Positions 9,988-16,722 of a DNA stretch of 64,000 bases are shown one piece after another. Numbering within the stretch: the first letter of the stretch is position 1; every line of letters starts with the position of its first letter. A program made the translations under genes and the position numbers. Under the pieces are notes generated by a model. It made no database searches. It was given only the letters and a program-made list of their open reading frames with translations, and was not told the origin of the DNA. Origin of the DNA: Verrucomicrobiota bacterium (GTDB lineage Bacteria > Verrucomicrobiota > Verrucomicrobiia > Limisphaerales > CAIQOK01); contig JAXMHO010000007.1 in the NCBI GenBank assembly GCA_046346715.1, forward strand, positions 35,517-99,516, in the 5' to 3' direction.

Positions 9988-11256
9988 TTACTTGGCGGGA
10001 TGGCGTCGCCAGTAATTGGCCAGGACGGATCCGCTGACGTTCATCCACGGGCTGAAAATGGCCGCCGCCAGGCCGATGGTGCCCAGCTTGCCCATCTGGG
10101 CGGCAAGACCGGAGGCCATCGCGCCGTTTTGCAGGCCGACTTCAAACGCCACGGACCGCGCGGAGTTTTTGTCCAGCCCGCTCGCCCGGCTGAGCCAGTA
10201 GCCGAAGACATACCCCAGGGCGTTGTGAATGACCGACGCCAGGAACAGCAGCAGACCGACCTTCAGCAAATTGTCACGCCCCGCCGCCGTGGTGATCGTG
10301 GTGAAGTAAACAATGCCGGCCATCGAAGCCGCAGGCATCCATGAGTCCAGTTTGACAACCACCCGGCTGAGCCGGTGATAAACCACGCCGAAGACAATCG
10401 CCGCGCAGAAGAATCCGAAAATGCCTGCGCACACCAGCCCATCTTCGGACAGGCTTTCCTTCAGCCAGCCCCAGCCGCCGAACGCCACGAATCCCAGCCA
10501 GACCGCGCCCAAGGTTGCGAGCACCTGAACCACCGTCCGCCCCCGCGAACTCGCATGCTTGAGATAATCGTGCAGCAGCGCCGCACCGATCGGCACGATG
10601 ACGATCTTGATGATCTCCATCATCATCCCGAAGTAGGTCATCGTCACTTCCGCGCCGGCAAGCCATTTGACCCAGAACGGCGTGATGAACGGCGCGACCA
10701 CGGTGGTCATCGCCGTCACGGTGACGGACAGCGCGAGGTTGGATTTGGCGATGTAGGCCATGACGTTCGACGCCAGCCCGCTGGAACAGGAACCGATCAG
10801 GATGATTCCCGCCGCGATCTCCGGCTCGAAATGAAAGAGCTTGGTCAGTGCCAGCCCCACGAGCGGCATCACCGTGAAGTGACAGAAAATACCCACGAAC
10901 ACCCCGCGCGGATTCTTCACCACACCCGCGAAATCCTGCAGACTCATCTGCGTGCCCATCCCAAACATCACCGTCTGCACCACCAAAAGCTTGACCCATT
11001 TGTTTTGCAGGTCGAACCCGCCCCACTTGGAAAACCACTGCGGATAAATCATTGCCACGGTCACCGCCGCGATGATCCAGGCGGTGAACTGGTAGTTGCG
11101 GAACTGCTTGGAGAAGCGCAGCGCGATCGCCAGAACCACCGGACCAATCGCTGCCGCCGGTTTCCAAATTTCCGGATGACCGGTCAGCCAGGCGGGCAAA
11201 ATCATGGTGAATATCATCGCCAGCAGGACCAGTTCAAATTTCGCCACGGGAAACAT
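9988..11256 (-). CDS. Bile acid:sodium symporter (BASS/SBF-like) family transporter
   Basis: This is a polytopic membrane protein. The motif FEVGLQNGAMASGLA and the overall pattern are typical of BASS family permeases. Confidence 0.75.
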   Translation of the reverse strand: MFPVAKFELVLLAMIFTMILPAWLTGHPEIWKPAAAIGPVVLAIALRFSKQFRNYQFTAWIIAAVTVAMIYPQWFSKWGGFDLQNKWVKLLVVQTVMFGMGTQMSLQDFAGVVKNPRGVFVGIFCHFTVMPLVGLALTKLFHFEPEIAAGIILIGSCSSGLASNVMAYIAKSNLALSVTVTAMTTVVAPFITPFWVKWLAGAEVTMTYFGMMMEIIKIVIVPIGAALLHDYLKHASSRGRTVVQVLATLGAVWLGFVAFGGWGWLKESLSEDGLVCAGIFGFFCAAIVFGVVYHRLSRVVVKLDSWMPAASMAGIVYFTTITTAAGRDNLLKVGLLLFLASVIHNALGYVFGYWLSRASGLDKNSARSVAFEVGLQNGAMASGLAAQMGKLGTIGLAAAIFSPWMNVSGSVLANYWRRHPAK

Positions 11257-11280
11257 TTTAATCGGGGATTGCCACCGCCC

Positions 11281-11940
11281 TCACAGCACCGTCGCCAAAT
11301 AATCCACGGCTATGCCGGGGCTGGCAAAGATCGGCACACGTTTGTCACCCTGGGCAAGCGAATCCACCACCCGCGCCATCGAAGCCTGCGCCAGCACGAT
11401 GACCTCCACCTGCTGCGAAAGCTCCTTCAGCGCCGCTGCCACCTTGGCGTCATGCGTCGCCCCGTCACCGGCCATCAAGGCTTCAAACGCGCCCTCGACG
11501 AGCTTCGAGGTGAGTTCGATTTTCTTGTTGGCGATGGCCGCGCGGCGTTGGATCAAATCCGCCGTTGGCTCAAGCGTCGTCGAAAGCGTGGCGATGACGC
11601 CGATCCTCTTGCCAGCGGCCACGGCCTTGTCCGCCATCGGTTGGTCCACGCGCAAGACCGGCACGCCCATCAACTTCGCGCCCGCCTCCACGGCCGGCCC
11701 GATGGATGAGCAGGTCACCATGATATAATCCGCGCCCGCCAGTTCGGCGGATTCCAGATAGCCCGCCACGCGTCGGGCAATGGTCGCCGTGAGCGAACCG
11801 GCCTCACGGATGCCACGCACGAGCGAATCATCGGCGATGTTGAACACATTCACGCCCGGCAGCTTTTCCTTGCAGAGCTGGGCAAACACCGGCACCAGCG
11901 TGGCCGAAGTATGGATGAGACCGAGGGTTTTCTTTTTCAT
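11281..11940 (-). CDS. Asp/Glu/hydantoin racemase family protein
   Basis: MKKKTLGLIHTSATLVPVF...VTCSSIGP...IVLAQASM matches the two-Cys/Ser half-site pattern of the Asp/Glu racemase superfamily. ATG 11940 was chosen over the upstream GTG at 11949. Confidence 0.65.
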   Translation of the reverse strand: MKKKTLGLIHTSATLVPVFAQLCKEKLPGVNVFNIADDSLVRGIREAGSLTATIARRVAGYLESAELAGADYIMVTCSSIGPAVEAGAKLMGVPVLRVDQPMADKAVAAGKRIGVIATLSTTLEPTADLIQRRAAIANKKIELTSKLVEGAFEALMAGDGATHDAKVAAALKELSQQVEVIVLAQASMARVVDSLAQGDKRVPIFASPGIAVDYLATVL

Positions 11941-12071
11941 GGTTCGCACCCAAGCTAACGAATGGCAGTGGCGGCGTCCATGCCGGGCTGCGCCAGATTC
12001 AATTATAAAACTGCCATGCGCCGGGCGGTGAAGGATTGCGATGCACTCCGAATTCCCGCTATCGTTTTTCG

Positions 12072-13367
12072 ATGACCCAATCTGCCAGCAACAGTGCCAC
12101 GTCCGTTATTGCCGCCGGTGCCGCCAGCCGCGCCCGTTATGGCACCCTGGCTTTTGCCCTGGTCATCACGGCCGTTTCCTATCTCGACCGCGTCTGCATC
12201 TCGATGACCGGCCCGTTCATGCAGGAGGATCTCGGCCTGAGCGACAAGCAGCTTGGCTACCTCTTCAGCGCCTTTACCTTCGCCTACGCCTTGTTTGAAA
12301 TTCCCGCCGGCTGGCTGGCGGACCGGTTCGGACCAAGGATGATGCTGACCCGGGTCGTGGTGTGGTGGTCGCTGTTGACGGCCGCCACGGGATTCGCCGG
12401 CGGATTTGCCACCCTGTTTGTGGCGCGCCTGCTGTTCGGCATCGGCGAGGCGGGAATGTTTCCCGGACTCTCCCGCGTTTTCTCCCGCTGGCTGCCCGCG
12501 AGCTGGCGGGGCAACGCCTTTGGCCTCGCCATCATGACCGGATTGATCGGCGGCGCGCTCACCCAGAAGCTGACCGCCGAACTGCTCGGCACGTTTCACT
12601 GGCATTGGCGGACGGTCTTTTTCGTTTACGCCTCCACGGGCATTGTCTGGGCGGCCGGATGGTTCATCTGGTTTCGCGACGAACCCAACCAGCACCGCTC
12701 CGTCAATGAAGCCGAATTGAAGCTGATCAACGCCGCGCCGATTCCGCCCCACGCCCGCGTTCCCTGGCGGAATCTTGTGCGCAACCGTTCCCTGCTCCTG
12801 CTCTGCGGCATGTATTTCGGCGTCATCTACGGCTGGTATTTCTTCCTGACGTTTATGCCCAAGTATCTGCTTCAGGCGCGCGGCTTCGATCTCAAAACCA
12901 CCGGCTGGCTGGCCATGCTTCCGTTGCTGTGCATGGCCGCCGGCGTCGCCACCGCCGGCTGGGCCAGCGACCGCTGCATCAAACGCTTCGGGCTGCGCTG
13001 GGGTCGCCGGCTCCCGGGTTTGTGCGGACTGCCCATCGCCGCCATCGTCATCGTGGTGGCGGTGTTGATTCAGGATGCCAAAGCTTCGGCGTGTTTGTTC
13101 GCAATCGCGGCGGGGCTCGCGACGTTAGGTGTGGCACCAGGCTGGGCGGCCTGTCTCGACATCGGCGGTGCCCATGCGGGTGTCGTGACCGGCGCGATGA
13201 ACACCTTCGGCAATCTCGGCGGCACGGCGATGCCGCTGCTGATGGGCTTGTGTCTTGAACACTTGAATTCTTGGAACGTCTCCCTGCTGACGGTCGGATT
13301 TTTCTATTTGTTCTCCGCCATCTGCTGGCTGGGCATCCGAGCGGACGAACCGATTCCGGAAACCTGA
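12072..13367 (+). CDS. MFS transporter, anion:cation symporter (ACS; hexuronate/galactonate-type) family
   Basis: A 12-TM pattern is present, with LDRVCISMTGPFMQEDLGLSDKQLGYLFSAFTFAYALFEIPAGWLADRFGPR typical of ACS-family MFS. The start was trimmed to ATG 12072. Confidence 0.8.
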   Translation: MTQSASNSATSVIAAGAASRARYGTLAFALVITAVSYLDRVCISMTGPFMQEDLGLSDKQLGYLFSAFTFAYALFEIPAGWLADRFGPRMMLTRVVVWWSLLTAATGFAGGFATLFVARLLFGIGEAGMFPGLSRVFSRWLPASWRGNAFGLAIMTGLIGGALTQKLTAELLGTFHWHWRTVFFVYASTGIVWAAGWFIWFRDEPNQHRSVNEAELKLINAAPIPPHARVPWRNLVRNRSLLLLCGMYFGVIYGWYFFLTFMPKYLLQARGFDLKTTGWLAMLPLLCMAAGVATAGWASDRCIKRFGLRWGRRLPGLCGLPIAAIVIVVAVLIQDAKASACLFAIAAGLATLGVAPGWAACLDIGGAHAGVVTGAMNTFGNLGGTAMPLLMGLCLEHLNSWNVSLLTVGFFYLFSAICWLGIRADEPIPET

Positions 13368-13374
13368 ACGGCGT

Positions 13375-14742
13375 TCAGCGCGATCCCCGCCGCACGATTT
13401 CAAAATAATTCTCCGGCCCAACCTGGCCGCCCTTGAATACCACCTCACAGCCGTCCACCGGCGAGTTCGTTGCCCGCGCCCGGCACAACGGCGCGCCCGG
13501 CGTGAGCGGGGCAATCATCTCCAGCGCCTCTATTCCCATGGCCCGCGCGGCGTAACTGGACGTGTCCCCCCCGGCGATGCTGACGCGGCGGACGGAAGTT
13601 TGTTTCACCGCCTCGTGCAAAACTTTCCCCAGCGCCGAACCGAGAACTTCCGCGGTGCGCCCTTTCAATTTGGCAGCAATGCGCGGATTTGATCCCGACC
13701 TGGTGGAATGCACGATGACGCTGCGGTCAGCGAGCAACAGCTTGGCGGCTGCCTGAGCAGCGCGGGATATTTCTTGAAGGGATGTCTTGGCATCGGCCAG
13801 CAACAAAGCATTCAAGGCCACTTCCGCAAATCCATGCTTCAAAGCCCAGGTAATCTGCCCATTCGTCACTGGCGAGCAACTACCTGAGCCGATCAGAACT
13901 TGTGTAGCAGCGGACGTGAGTCCGCTGATCTTACCTCTGCTGGTTTCAGTTTGAGCCGACCCACGTCGGCTGTTGCCCGCGCTAAAAGCCGCCGCCAACG
14001 CAGCCTCAATTCCCGACGATCCCACCGAGAACAAAGGACTTTTCTTCGCCGCAGAGTCTTTCAGCAGTTCACCAATCCGCGCAATGTGCTCCGCCGTCAG
14101 CGCATCAAATAGCACCACGTCAGGCTTCTCGGCGAGTAATTGCCGGAATGCCACATGGAATTCTTTTTCCGGCAGCGAGAATTTCAGGATGTCGAACAGG
14201 GCGCTCCTTTTCTGGGTCTGCTTCGAGAGATGCAGCCGCAAGTCCGCCTCGGTCATCGGCGTGACCGGGTGTTTGCTGATGGAGGGATGGCGGTCAAGCC
14301 GGTGGATAGCGCCGGCGCTGCCGATACCGTAGCGCGCGAAGTGTTGGCCGAAGATCGTGTAGCGTCCGAGCGAAGGCGCGGCGACCAGCAACGGAATGAA
14401 CGGCGCAGGAAAAATTTTCGCCGCCACATCCATAACCTTGCCGATACTGCCGACGTGCGGCGCAGAATCGAACGTGGAACAAACTTTGTAGTGAACGTGC
14501 CGCGGCTTCAACTTCTTCAGCGCGAGCATGGCGGGCTTCAGTTCCTGTTCCATCGCCGCGGGAGCGAGCGACCGGGTCTTGCCCGCAACGCCCACGGCCT
14601 GCAGCCCGGGAAACTTCTTCAGTTGCGCTGGCGTGGGCGGCGCGATGAACAGCGCCGTGCGGATGCCCGCCAGCGACAGTTGCTCCAGCGCATCCGTCGA
14701 ACCGGTGAAGTCGTCGCCGTAAAATGTGAGGAGGAGGTTCAT
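13375..14742 (-). CDS. Four-carbon acid-sugar kinase family protein (DUF1537), copy 2
   Basis: It has MNLLLTFYGDDFTGSTDALEQL (the DDxTG motif) and a C-terminal SIAGGDTSSYAARAMG motif. ORF-track ORF 13375..14937 was trimmed to ATG 14742 because the upstream extension reads through a repeat element. Confidence 0.8.
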   Translation of the reverse strand: MNLLLTFYGDDFTGSTDALEQLSLAGIRTALFIAPPTPAQLKKFPGLQAVGVAGKTRSLAPAAMEQELKPAMLALKKLKPRHVHYKVCSTFDSAPHVGSIGKVMDVAAKIFPAPFIPLLVAAPSLGRYTIFGQHFARYGIGSAGAIHRLDRHPSISKHPVTPMTEADLRLHLSKQTQKRSALFDILKFSLPEKEFHVAFRQLLAEKPDVVLFDALTAEHIARIGELLKDSAAKKSPLFSVGSSGIEAALAAAFSAGNSRRGSAQTETSRGKISGLTSAATQVLIGSGSCSPVTNGQITWALKHGFAEVALNALLLADAKTSLQEISRAAQAAAKLLLADRSVIVHSTRSGSNPRIAAKLKGRTAEVLGSALGKVLHEAVKQTSVRRVSIAGGDTSSYAARAMGIEALEMIAPLTPGAPLCRARATNSPVDGCEVVFKGGQVGPENYFEIVRRGSR

Positions 14743-14755
14743 GCAGCGAAAATTA

Positions 14756-14879
14756 AACCACAGAGACGCAGAGACACGGAGAGAGGAATGAAAAGACGTT
14801 GGCACAAAGATAGCCAGTGGATTGCAGCGAACGGCAAACTCTGATCGGCATGCCTCTGTGTCTCTGCGTCTCTGTGGTT
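14756..14879. repeat. Inverted-repeat element (22-bp perfect arms, 80-nt spacer) of the aaccRcagagaMcgcagag repeat family, 'empty' copy
   Basis: aaccacagagacgcagagacac at 14756-14777 is the exact reverse complement of 14858-14879. The element is flanked by ttaa(a) on both outer sides. Confidence 0.85.
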
Positions 14880-15295
14880 CATTTAAATACGCCTCCAAGC
14901 ACGACGCGTTCAATTCCATCTTTGAGCAAAGGCACATTAAAATTTATCAGCAGACCTAGTAGGTTTTGGTTTAGTTTGAGGTAGGTCAACAGCTGAGCCT
15001 TGTGCACCGGCAGGATTTCTTGAACGGCCTTAAGTTCAACGATCAGTTCGTTGGCGATGATGAAATCTAGGCGATAACCGCAGTCCAGCTTCACGCCCTT
15101 GTAATCGAGCGGAAGATCAACCTGCTTTTGAAATGGAATTCCAGCCCGAGAAAGTTCATGAGCCAACGCCGCCTCATAAGCTGATTCCAATAATCCCGGT
15201 CCAAGCACACGATGCACCTCGATACAAAGACCAATGACACGCTTACTTAACTCATTCAGCGTCTTTCTTTGTGCCTCTGCGTCTCTGTGGTTCAT
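14879..15295 (-). CDS. GxxExxY protein (PD-(D/E)XK nuclease-like small protein)
   Basis: IEVHRVLGPGLLESAYEAALAHEL contains the GxxExxY motif, and LDFIIANELIVELKAV has a nuclease-like core. The region is visibly more AT-rich than its neighbours. The N-terminus MNHRDAEAQRK is encoded by the repeat. Confidence 0.8.
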   Translation of the reverse strand: MNHRDAEAQRKTLNELSKRVIGLCIEVHRVLGPGLLESAYEAALAHELSRAGIPFQKQVDLPLDYKGVKLDCGYRLDFIIANELIVELKAVQEILPVHKAQLLTYLKLNQNLLGLLINFNVPLLKDGIERVVLGGVFK

Positions 15296-15298
15296 TTA
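15273..15298. repeat. Additional copy of the repeat family (direct repeat of 14860-14885)
   Basis: ctctgcgtctctgtggttcattta occurs at both 15275-15298 and 14862-14885. It contains the overlapping stop (TGA) of the upstream gene and the ATG of the downstream reading frame. Confidence 0.8.
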
Positions 15299-16554
15299 GC
15301 TTTCCCGAACTTCTCCACAGACTTTTTCAACTCCGGATATTTCGCTGCGGCCTGTTCGAGCGTGAGTCCTTCGACCGCCGCTTCCCACCACTTTTGCAGC
15401 GAGCGCACACCGGCTGCCGGGCCATCGGGATGCGCCGCAATGCCGCCGCCCGCCATGTAGAGCAGATCAACCGTCTGGGTGCGGCGATACGTTTCGCACG
15501 CCTGTCCGCCCCATTGACCGGAGGAAACAACAGGCAAGACGGACATACCACCGAGCAACGGCTTCGCACAGGCAGCCATTGACCGCACGACCGAATCATC
15601 GCTCTCCCAAAATTTGTTCGCGATTCCGTTGACGTGGAGTTGGTCCGCGCCCGCCAACCGCCAGAGGACTTGATACGCGGGAAATTCAATGCCGAGCTGC
15701 GGATGACGATTCAACATCCCCCAGCCGTTGCGATGGCCGTGAATGGCAAGTGCACCGATGTCGCAAATCTTTTTCGCACCGCTCAAGCCGACGCTGTTGA
15801 GCGAAATCATCGCGCACGTGCCGCCGGACTTCACGATCTTCTCGTAATGCCGTTGCATCGCGTCGAGTTCGTCACTGACATTGAAGGCATACATTACCTT
15901 TTTGCCGGTGCGATCGGCGTGAGCATTGATGACGCGCATGATGGCATCGACGCGTTCATCGAACGGCGAGTGCGGCGGGTCCGCCATCAACTCGTCGTCT
16001 TTCACGAAATCAATTCCCGCCTCACAGAGAACTTTCACCATTTCCGCCGTCTGCTGCGGCGACATGCCGATACTCGGCTTGATGATCGTGCCGATGAACG
16101 GACGGCCTTCGACCTTGGTCAGCTTCCGGCAACCCGCGACGCCGAACTTCGGTCCGCGAAAATGCTGGGCGAACGACGGTGGCAGTTCGAGGTTCATCAG
16201 CTTGAGGCCGGTGAACGCGGTGATTTCGTAGAGATTGCCTTGGATGGTGGAAACGAGCGTGGGCAGGTTATAACCCATGTTCTCGATCGACCACGAGACG
16301 ACGACTTCTGCGCGTTGAAATTTTCCCGAGGCCGATCTCGCACCCGGCAAGCTCGGCGTAGCGACGGTTTCCAGCAGCGTGATCTTCTCCACGCGCGCAG
16401 CAAAGCGTTGCTTGAGTTCTTCGGTTTCTCCCGGGACAGCCACAAAGGTTCCGGAAGATTGTTCACCCGCCAGCGTGGCGGCGGCTTTCTCCACCGCGAG
16501 CGGCGTCTCGATATGATACGTGGCGAAAATGCGTTCCATGACTGATAAATTCAT
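15292..16554 (-). CDS. RuBisCO-like protein (form IV RLP)
   Basis: GTIIKPSIGMS, DFVKDDELMADPPHSPF (the KDDE metal/carbamate site) and IHGHRNGWG correspond to RuBisCO large-subunit active-site segments. ATG 16554 was chosen; alternatives are TTG 16581 and ATG 16539. Confidence 0.85.
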   Translation of the reverse strand: MNLSVMERIFATYHIETPLAVEKAAATLAGEQSSGTFVAVPGETEELKQRFAARVEKITLLETVATPSLPGARSASGKFQRAEVVVSWSIENMGYNLPTLVSTIQGNLYEITAFTGLKLMNLELPPSFAQHFRGPKFGVAGCRKLTKVEGRPFIGTIIKPSIGMSPQQTAEMVKVLCEAGIDFVKDDELMADPPHSPFDERVDAIMRVINAHADRTGKKVMYAFNVSDELDAMQRHYEKIVKSGGTCAMISLNSVGLSGAKKICDIGALAIHGHRNGWGMLNRHPQLGIEFPAYQVLWRLAGADQLHVNGIANKFWESDDSVVRSMAACAKPLLGGMSVLPVVSSGQWGGQACETYRRTQTVDLLYMAGGGIAAHPDGPAAGVRSLQKWWEAAVEGLTLEQAAAKYPELKKSVEKFGKAK

Positions 16555-16722
16555 TGTGGGGATTTCTTTTAGCGAATCCAAGCCCCTTGATTCATGGAAT
16601 TATCGCCGAAAGTGTTTTGAAAAGCGCCACCGCCTTCATTGGACTTTCCTGTCGCGCTTGCCGTGCTATTGTCACCCTCATCACCGCGGGCCAACGATGG
16701 TCGCGCCGTGGCCGAATCAATT

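Follow-up and report, generated by a model that had tools for sequence, protein, structure and literature searches.

A GxxExxY gene between palindromic arms: a probable intervening-sequence-like cassette in a sugar-acid operon of a Verrucomicrobiota bacterium

Described systems nearest to the element

Intervening sequences (IVS) in 23S rRNA include forms that carry an open reading frame (ORF), for example in Coxiella burnetii and Leptospira, described as a 428-nt element of low GC content with a 28-bp terminal stem (PMC4990558). They are gained horizontally and then retained vertically, RNase III cuts the stem, and a role of the ORF in mobility has been suspected (PMC4990558). This is the nearest described architecture to the element considered here, which lies in a 64,000-nucleotide stretch of a Verrucomicrobiota genome (contig JAXMHO010000007.1, positions 35,517 to 99,516; hereafter the window) and consists of a GxxExxY gene placed between the genes for a RuBisCO-like protein (RLP) and a four-carbon acid sugar kinase, all on the minus strand. 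With a probability of roughly three in four, we consider it to be a palindrome-bounded single-gene cassette resembling the 23S rRNA IVS, in which the GxxExxY ORF, within inverted repeats of about 30 bp, occupies a former overlap of the RLP and kinase genes; the cassette is held by an operon of the oxo-isoapionate type.

The window element has terminal inverted repeats that form a long stem around an internal ORF, and it shares with the IVS a GC content below that of the host, horizontal gain followed by vertical keeping, and an ORF suspected of a role in mobility. It differs in lying between two protein genes in an mRNA and not in an rRNA helix, in its ORF, which is of the PD-(D/E)XK type (PF13366) where that of the IVS encodes the S23p four-helix bundle, and in its arms, which are tandem 8-mers for which a test of G-U pairing (below) gives no support to constraint at the RNA level. 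Because location and ORF family differ, the cassette is not a member of the 23S rRNA IVS class.

Miniature inverted-repeat transposable elements (MITEs) and repetitive extragenic palindromic (REP) repeats, such as Correia elements and REPINs (PMC3733652), offer a second comparison. The ORF-less relatives of the cassette are likewise short multi-copy palindromes, with loops mostly below 180 nt, and ORF-less and ORF-bearing copies resemble non-autonomous and autonomous elements in their relation. Terminal inverted repeats and a multi-copy state are shared with MITEs, with no clear target-site duplication: an ATG(A) stands at both ends of the cassette (AAATGAACC...GGTTCATGAAC), yet it also belongs to the palindrome. 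Unlike a MITE, the element of the window has coding capacity, for a conserved protein of 138 aa, and only the ORF-less copies are non-coding. REPs tagged with GTAG or CGTC (PMC3733652) were considered and rejected, as the arm ends read T(G/T)AACC...GGTT(C/A)A and contain neither tag. Near-identical arm sequences occur in many phyla here, which is not so for REPs, and no RAYT (REP-associated tyrosine transposase) or transposase was found among the called genes in the 2–3 kb flanking the cassette loci examined.

Homing endonuclease genes are a further point of reference, with the seg and mob genes of phages as free-standing examples and I-Ssp6803I as an enzyme of the PD-(D/E)XK type. In both cases a small nuclease gene, a predicted one in the cassette, stands between conserved neighbours and is present or absent among relatives, but the cassette has palindromic arms and a long vertical retention under purifying selection. 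The integron cassette, an ORF with an attC hairpin, resembles the window in the order of a promoterless single ORF and then an imperfect palindrome, and differs in that here arms lie on both sides of the ORF. An attC site was rejected on the ends AATGAAC and GTTTAAT, which misfit RYYYAAC / GTTRRRY, and no integron array, attI or integrase was seen at the locus, where the cassette is single and inside a metabolic operon. A search of the available literature found no account of GxxExxY cassettes, of their genomic behaviour or of the arm sequences.

The cassette and its orthologous junctions

Verrucomicrobiota metagenomes are rich in close RLP homologues, and the junctions orthologous to that of the window are empty in three contigs, hold an ORF-less hairpin in one and the same cassette in six. 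The empty loci (L002, L003 and L004) show a direct overlap of RLP stop and kinase start (GGATGAGC, CTGATGAGC), the junction reading …AAATGAGC…, and in L001 a gap of 87 nt at the same spot contains an ORF-less hairpin opening with the same AAATGAACCGCAGAGACACAGAGG. The GC content of the cassette is 47% in the window against 58–59% in the flanks, and in all six distinct junction sequences (the window and L205–L209; L210 shares protein P0125 and the 3' junction with L209) it is 47–50% against 56–61%, about 10 points lower. Relative to the empty orthologous loci the cassette is evidently an insertion; the initial annotation, made from the window alone, had likewise taken GxxExxY for an inserted single-gene cassette, and the three empty loci and the difference in composition bear this out.

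The GxxExxY proteins of L205–L210 are 77–88% identical to that of the window, and the contig of P0122 has the cassette at the same junction by gene calls only. Each of the cassette proteins finds its best match in another of them. All of the closest GxxExxY homologues (77–91% identity, 138–140 aa) begin with MNH(R/K)DTE(A/T)QR, the kind of shared repeat-encoded N-terminus for which the initial annotation had advised a check, and all those whose context was retrieved (L205–L208, L209/L210 and the P0122 calls) lie at the RLP–kinase junction and start in an ATGA overlap. In these orthologous cassettes a left arm is followed by the ORF, about 13 nt, an inverted right arm (CTCTGTGCCTCTGTGCCTCTGTGGTTCA), 0–12 nt and the kinase ATG; the boundaries, AAATGAACCACAGAG... 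and ...CTCTGTGGTTCA(TG), are inverted and not direct copies, and a second direct arm copy is absent from every orthologous cassette examined (L205–L210). As this comparison shows, the canonical form is left arm, ORF and right arm, with no direct repeat.

The window has, in addition, a direct repeat. The 24-mer CTCTGCGTCTCTGTGGTTCATTTA, which reads TAAATGAACCACAGAGACGCAGAG on the minus strand in each copy, occurs exactly at 14862–14885 and 15275–15298, as first noted in the initial annotation, and nowhere else in the window; none of 100 dinucleotide-preserving shuffles gave matches like this pair, and the repeat widens to 32 nt at 94% identity (14854–14885 versus 15267–15298). Copy 1 belongs to the left arm (IR-L1, 15263..15298; TAAATGAACCACAGAG ACGCAGAG GCACAAAG), which encodes MNHRDAEAQRK and has a counterpart at the equal place in L205–L209, and copy 2 (IR-L2, 14854..14885) is a second left-arm copy missing from the orthologous cassettes. 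The right arm (IR-R, 14750..14785; CTCTCCGTGTCTCTGCGTCTCTGTGGTTTAATTT) is a third, inverted copy, overlooked in the initial annotation and homologous, together with the bases beyond it, to the right arms of the orthologues (3' junctions compared by eye), and can pair with copy 2 (90% complementary to 14854–14884) or with copy 1 (83% to 15263–15297). The arms consist of tandem 8-mers, AACCACAGAG, ACGCAGAG and then ACACAGAG in copy 2 or GCACAAAG in copy 1 (octamer types ..CACAGAG. / ..CGCAGAG.). Copy 2 and the inverted copy are predicted to form a stem of about 33 bp (-66.8 kcal/mol, z = -6.0) that finishes 8 nt ahead of the kinase ATG at 14742.

By-eye comparison with L205–L209 places the difference in a block of 84 nt (28 codons; 14795..14878) directly after the GxxExxY stop, made up of the copy 2 arm and 58 nt. 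The window lineage has evidently gained this in-frame piece after the ORF, and the gain gave rise to the direct repeat, lengthened the bridging ORF and set up the local hairpin of 33 bp. Since the orthologous cassettes lack the second copy and that of the window lies within the lineage-specific block, the direct repeat is, as far as these comparisons go, a secondary feature of the window lineage and not an insertion mark. The initial annotation had read the two copies as an insertion footprint, left by recombination at an existing repeat or by duplication of one copy on insertion, and they do bracket the ORF exactly, with an ATGA in each; in L001, whose host locus is the closest to that of the window (99.7% bootstrap), the ORF-less hairpin might represent the pre-insertion state. 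However, the orthologous cassettes of six contigs sit at the same junction with no second direct copy, their GxxExxY genes are the best matches of the window protein (77–88%), which makes the ORF older than the direct repeat, and the extra copy lies inside the 84-nt addition, so we think a footprint improbable and that part of the initial annotation has to be given up. Orthologous loci carrying the gene as an ancestral and repeat-free one had been named there as grounds for abandoning the idea: the gene proves to be old at the site and free of the direct repeat, but inverted repeats are present. That the second copy is an artefact of assembly is scarcely credible. The source is a metagenome-assembled genome (P0121), but the added block keeps the frame exactly, a long gap, here of 157 nt, likewise separates GxxExxY from the called kinase start in P0122, the nearest relative (91%), and a repeat of 24–32 nt is short against the k-mers typically used in assembly.

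As to where the 84 nt came from, a separate ORF-less, MITE-like hairpin that landed or recombined at the ATGAACC of the GxxExxY stop and became fused to the cassette's own right arm is a possible source, although a doubtful one, in place of a local copy of the left arm. ORF-less hairpins are abundant and many open with (A)TGAACC; microhomology would be provided by the ATGAACC that stands precisely at the GxxExxY stop in L207 and L208; the 58-nt loop has no local source; and the third unit of copy 2 (ACACAGAG) is a better match to the right arm than copy 1 is. Against a separate hairpin, the exact 24-nt identity takes in the TAAA that precedes the TGA, also present in copy 1, just one right arm is present, and all three window copies have ACGCAGAG as the second arm unit where the orthologues have A/GCACAGAG, a shared lineage-specific unit that suggests local copying or gene conversion, that is, copy correction among the window arms. 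Tandem single-arm copies were also observed elsewhere, with five left arms in L174 (19–167), three right arms in L186 (2503–2747) and two in L133 (3016–3387), so that an arm duplication like that of the window is not unique.

For the GxxExxY orthologues at the junction dN/dS is 0.03–0.07, with synonymous sites saturated, and DNA conservation of the repeat-encoded first 11 codons is 82–100% against 68–87% for the remainder. The cassette has evidently been inherited at the junction for long, under strong purifying selection, and because its GC content is low despite the saturation of synonymous sites, this low GC would be kept up and is not left over from a recent transfer. A tree of concatenated RLP, kinase and racemase sequences from the host loci pairs the window with the ORF-less L001 (99.7% bootstrap) and L206 with L207 (100%), and groups two empty loci in 8.7% of replicates only. 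On the simplest reading, a single old insertion would have been followed by loss of the ORF in L001, with L002 and L004 either empty from the start or emptied by precise loss. Long retention at the site under strong purifying selection would also suit a GxxExxY gene that truly belongs to the sugar-acid operon, as a working member or as its regulator, and is not foreign, but close orthologous operons lack the gene, its relatives are found in unrelated contexts (they lie in a pilus operon or between fabD and fabG, follow a peptidase gene, or precede an apparent HMG-CoA-lyase-like gene) and its composition is foreign, all of which makes native membership very improbable.

A candidate relay of translation across the insertion

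Three ATGA overlaps are found in the window: one at 15295–15292 in the left arm, where the RLP stop (TGA, 15294–15292) meets the GxxExxY start, one at 14882–14879 in copy 2, where the GxxExxY stop meets the start of a mini-ORF, and one at the kinase start (14742–14739). The first two had been reported for the repeat copies in the initial annotation and agree with the ORF list. In 6 of 6 distinct cassette junctions an ATG overlaps the GxxExxY stop, and the last GxxExxY sense codon (AAA, CGA, AGA or GCA) ends in A every time. The mini-ORFs that begin there have 47, 15, 19, 20, 16 and 19 codons, read through the right arm and end in a TGA that overlaps the kinase ATG. That of the window (14739..14882), running from the GxxExxY-stop ATGA through the hairpin to the kinase-start ATGA, has 47 codons against 19 by virtue of the 84-nt block, and those of L205–L209 have 15–20, in phase without exception. 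The spacers measure 136, 40, 52, 55, 43 and 52 nt, each leaving a remainder of 1 on division by 3, and for this reason the mini-ORF stop overlaps the kinase ATG; five different lengths occur among them, which implies four indel steps (3, 12, 3 and 84 nt), all divisible by three. The ORF-less hairpin of L001 keeps an ORF of 28 codons that opens in the RLP ATGA and ends 4 nt short of the kinase ATG. Between 14500 and 15500 neither a promoter-like nor a terminator-like consensus site was found, so that a promoter or terminator role of the element was rejected; the finding is in keeping with co-transcription of the genes.

These features suggest that the original direct overlap of RLP and kinase (1–4 nt) was replaced by a chain of termination and reinitiation, in which ribosomes would pass from RLP through an ATGA to GxxExxY, through a second to the mini-ORF and through a third to the kinase, the mini-ORF ferrying them through the right arm to the kinase start. 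We infer that the operon is still translated in this way. The initial annotation had proposed that translational coupling is preserved, which the in-phase mini-ORF of all six distinct cassettes makes probable, and had described an orphan frame running towards the kinase; that frame is real, but it is no orphan, being the long form of the relay ORF that ends at the kinase start. Coupling by overlapping stop and start codons and by small relay ORFs has its parallel here in the ATGA at three junctions and in a short ORF ending on the next start, and differs in that the relay ORF is made from the arm of an inserted element and has stayed in phase through four indels. At other GxxExxY loci tight coupling to the downstream gene appears frequent, though not universal.

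The stems might instead act at the RNA level, the arms pairing in the transcript and being cut by RNase III or the encoded enzyme, with release or regulation of the GxxExxY message as in IVS excision. Predicted full-length RNA folds pair the left with the right arm in the window and in L205 (z = -4.5 and -5.8), the local hairpin has the low energy given above, and the 28-bp IVS stem cut by RNase III is a precedent (PMC4990558). However, in 66 stems the mismatches that the sense RNA could accommodate as G-U pairs (61) are about as frequent as those of the A-C type (60), so there is no sign of selection on sense-strand RNA structure, which points to a palindrome at the DNA level; ribosomes on the relay ORF would unwind the stem; and a scan of 14000–16000 against Rfam gave sub-threshold chance matches only, with no rRNA match. 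Action through RNA is on this evidence unlikely.

Several points weigh against the history and the relay set out above. The deep nodes of the host-locus tree have less than 50% bootstrap, and one gain with losses is not rigorously separable from other histories. A long and stable vertical residence is unlike an actively mobile element, and the 58-nt part of the window addition has no homologue in any sequence compared. Two of the three spacer frames are open anyway, as the arms contain no stop codons; open frames being uninformative, the case for a relay rests on phase and on the conserved ATG, in six related sequences only. A crude and noisy scan of loci elsewhere gave 12 direct overlaps, 12 relay-like arrangements and 33 gapped ones.

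The locus nevertheless offers an instance of a foreign gene that has resided for long inside an operon, apparently without uncoupling the gene downstream. Palindrome-bounded selfish ORFs are of a kind already known, and the operon-compatible relay design would be the notable feature of this one.

The GxxExxY family, its hairpins and the host operon

The GxxExxY ORF (14879..15295, minus strand, 138 aa) matches TIGR04256 with 148.6 bits and PF13366 (PDDEXK_3) with 141.7 bits, both above the curated cutoffs of 35 and 22 bits. The TIGR04256 profile begins at residue 15, so the first 14 residues are taken to be repeat-encoded. The G34xxE37xxY40 motif and the nuclease motif of D77, E87 and K89 are intact in the window protein, and these six residues are invariant or nearly so among 28 relatives. 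An AlphaFold2 model (pLDDT 91) has a PD-(D/E)XK-type fold, Cas4-like or lambda-exonuclease-like, and among solved structures Cas4 and lambda exonuclease (E ≥ 0.009) come closest to it, along with Hjc, all of them as weak matches; a sequence search found no solved structure of the protein, a PHROGs search found nothing, and PADLOC gave a weak match to the Cas4 core only. At E ≤ 0.001 the family comprises 22,037 clusters at 50% identity, a very large family that is annotated by name only, and PDDEXK_3 has been listed as of unknown function with multiple transfers (PMC3424549).

Among the top-scoring representatives of the family (P0241–P0255) are proteins of 266–295 aa with two GxxExxY domains, and in L161 (1113–1649) a second, partial GxxExxY copy lies downstream in the same frame. 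Such two-domain proteins look like tandem cassettes fused through read-through of stop-free arms.

The arms have relatives far beyond this junction. A scan for the motif AACCRCAGAGACRCAGAG, with one genome per species, gave at least 120 loci (L005–L124), and the matches listed include Acidobacteriota, Cyanobacteria, Planctomycetota, Chloroflexota, Proteobacteria, Bacteroidota, Firmicutes, Verrucomicrobiota and one bin labelled as an archaeon. Most of these listed matches are hairpins of the same 8-mers with loops of 16–180 nt, an inverted partner being present for 75 of 141 arms and nearly always within 180 nt. No GxxExxY ORF lies within 150 nt at any of the 120 listed loci, and a motif exclusive to GxxExxY cassettes was accordingly rejected, most genomic copies of it being ORF-less hairpins. 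Nor do the arms of ORF-less hairpins routinely give genes their stop codons, which was seen in 9 of 87 cases against 7% in the control. In L007 (Dehalococcoidia) three such hairpins occur in 8 kb. We infer from these matches that the arms belong to a hairpin-repeat family of many phyla whose members are mostly ORF-less.

Approached from the protein side, octamer-type inverted repeats flank the gene at 62 of 80 other GxxExxY loci in metagenomes, encoding relatives of 53–73% identity, against 2 of 80 in a control with reversed but not complemented arms. The 7-mers of the arms vary (CACAGAG, CGCAGAG, CACGGAG, CACGAAG, CACAAAG, CGCCGAG, among others), and within an element both arms agree. Loop lengths are bimodal, below 150 nt or 370–600 nt, and in about 1.28 Mb GxxExxY was the sole family identified as cargo of large loops; the few other large loops, judged by eye on their ORFs with no family profiles, showed no recognisable gene.

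A link between the predicted nuclease and the hairpin family is plausible. The nuclease would be the likeliest agent of the spread of the element or of the maintenance of the palindrome, acting at the DNA level, a role put forward here as a hypothesis only; our best guess is that it may act on the palindrome itself or on the empty site. Taken further, GxxExxY genes and octamer-periodic palindromes might form an unrecognised pan-bacterial pair of mobile elements. The autonomous member, a palindrome around its own nuclease gene, would insert at gene junctions, stop/start overlaps within operons included, and be tolerated there because its arms provide stops, starts and relay frames; the ORF-less hairpins would be its non-autonomous counterpart, and the nuclease, by recognising either the cruciform palindrome or an unoccupied site, would drive copying or precise excision. 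We advance this tentatively, as it is possible but not the expectation we would hold at present. The locus supplies a natural series, from the empty site through the ORF-less hairpin and the canonical cassette to the cassette with its additional arm, which links the GxxExxY family to the cross-phylum hairpin repeat and makes testable both the target of the nuclease and the passage of ribosomes over inserted elements by way of arm-built mini-ORFs.

Other genomic settings are diverse. One relative lies between T2SSE and T2SSF, with an ORF that continues through the right arm and terminates in TGATG, and a related cassette follows a peptidase gene. In two closed replicons of cultured bacteria, both from a plasmid collection, GxxExxY lies between annotated same-strand fabD and fabG in Sphingomonas parapaucimobilis (NZ_CP155749.1; L215, 1494–1959) and between same-strand ade and a mannose-1-phosphate guanylyltransferase gene in Bernardetia. 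The L215 cassette was seen to have CGCGAAG-type arms, an ORF that runs through the right arm to a stop 2 nt before the fabG ATG, and a GC content of 57% against 65–69% in the flanks. Spread on plasmids was rejected, as a relative occurs in only 7 of 72,556 plasmid records.

In L187 a cassette with CACGGAG arms lies between apparent carboxyltransferase and HMG-CoA-lyase-like genes (named from reading of the sequence), with an ATGA overlap at its 5' end. By eye, L166, L168, L180, L202 and L203 have the same upstream and downstream junction sequence as L187, and these six loci look like a second conserved insertion site. In L203 a mini-ORF of 6 codons, again judged by eye, ends in a GTGA overlap.

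The host operon of the window (9988–16581, minus strand) has the order RLP, kinase, Asp/Glu-racemase-family gene and SBF-type transporter gene. The RLP gene (15292..16581, 429 aa) is OiaX-like, with 516 bits to NCBIfam OiaX and a match to Pfam RuBisCO_large, and the kinase gene (13375..14742), of the four-carbon acid sugar kinase family, is OiaK-like, with 398 bits to NCBIfam OiaK and matches to Pfam SBD_N and NBD_C; the identities that the initial annotation gave to the RLP, GxxExxY and kinase proteins agree with these profile matches. Family profiles and orthologues place the true kinase start at the ATG at 14742 (MNLLLTFYGDD). Ahead of this start the kinase frame stays open over 65 codons because the repeat arms have no stop codon in that frame, which accounts for the 520-aa ORF at 13375–14937, whose 5' extension had rightly been called spurious. 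Repeats of this sort would lead, in automated annotation, to spurious N-terminal extensions, to 'SVSLW / HRDTE' tails and to fused two-domain GxxExxY proteins. As both RLP and kinase score well under the equivalog cutoffs of OiaX and OiaK (700 bits each), the substrate of the operon may be other than 3-oxo-isoapionate. In several relatives of the host operon a gene for a GH2 glycosidase is present upstream.

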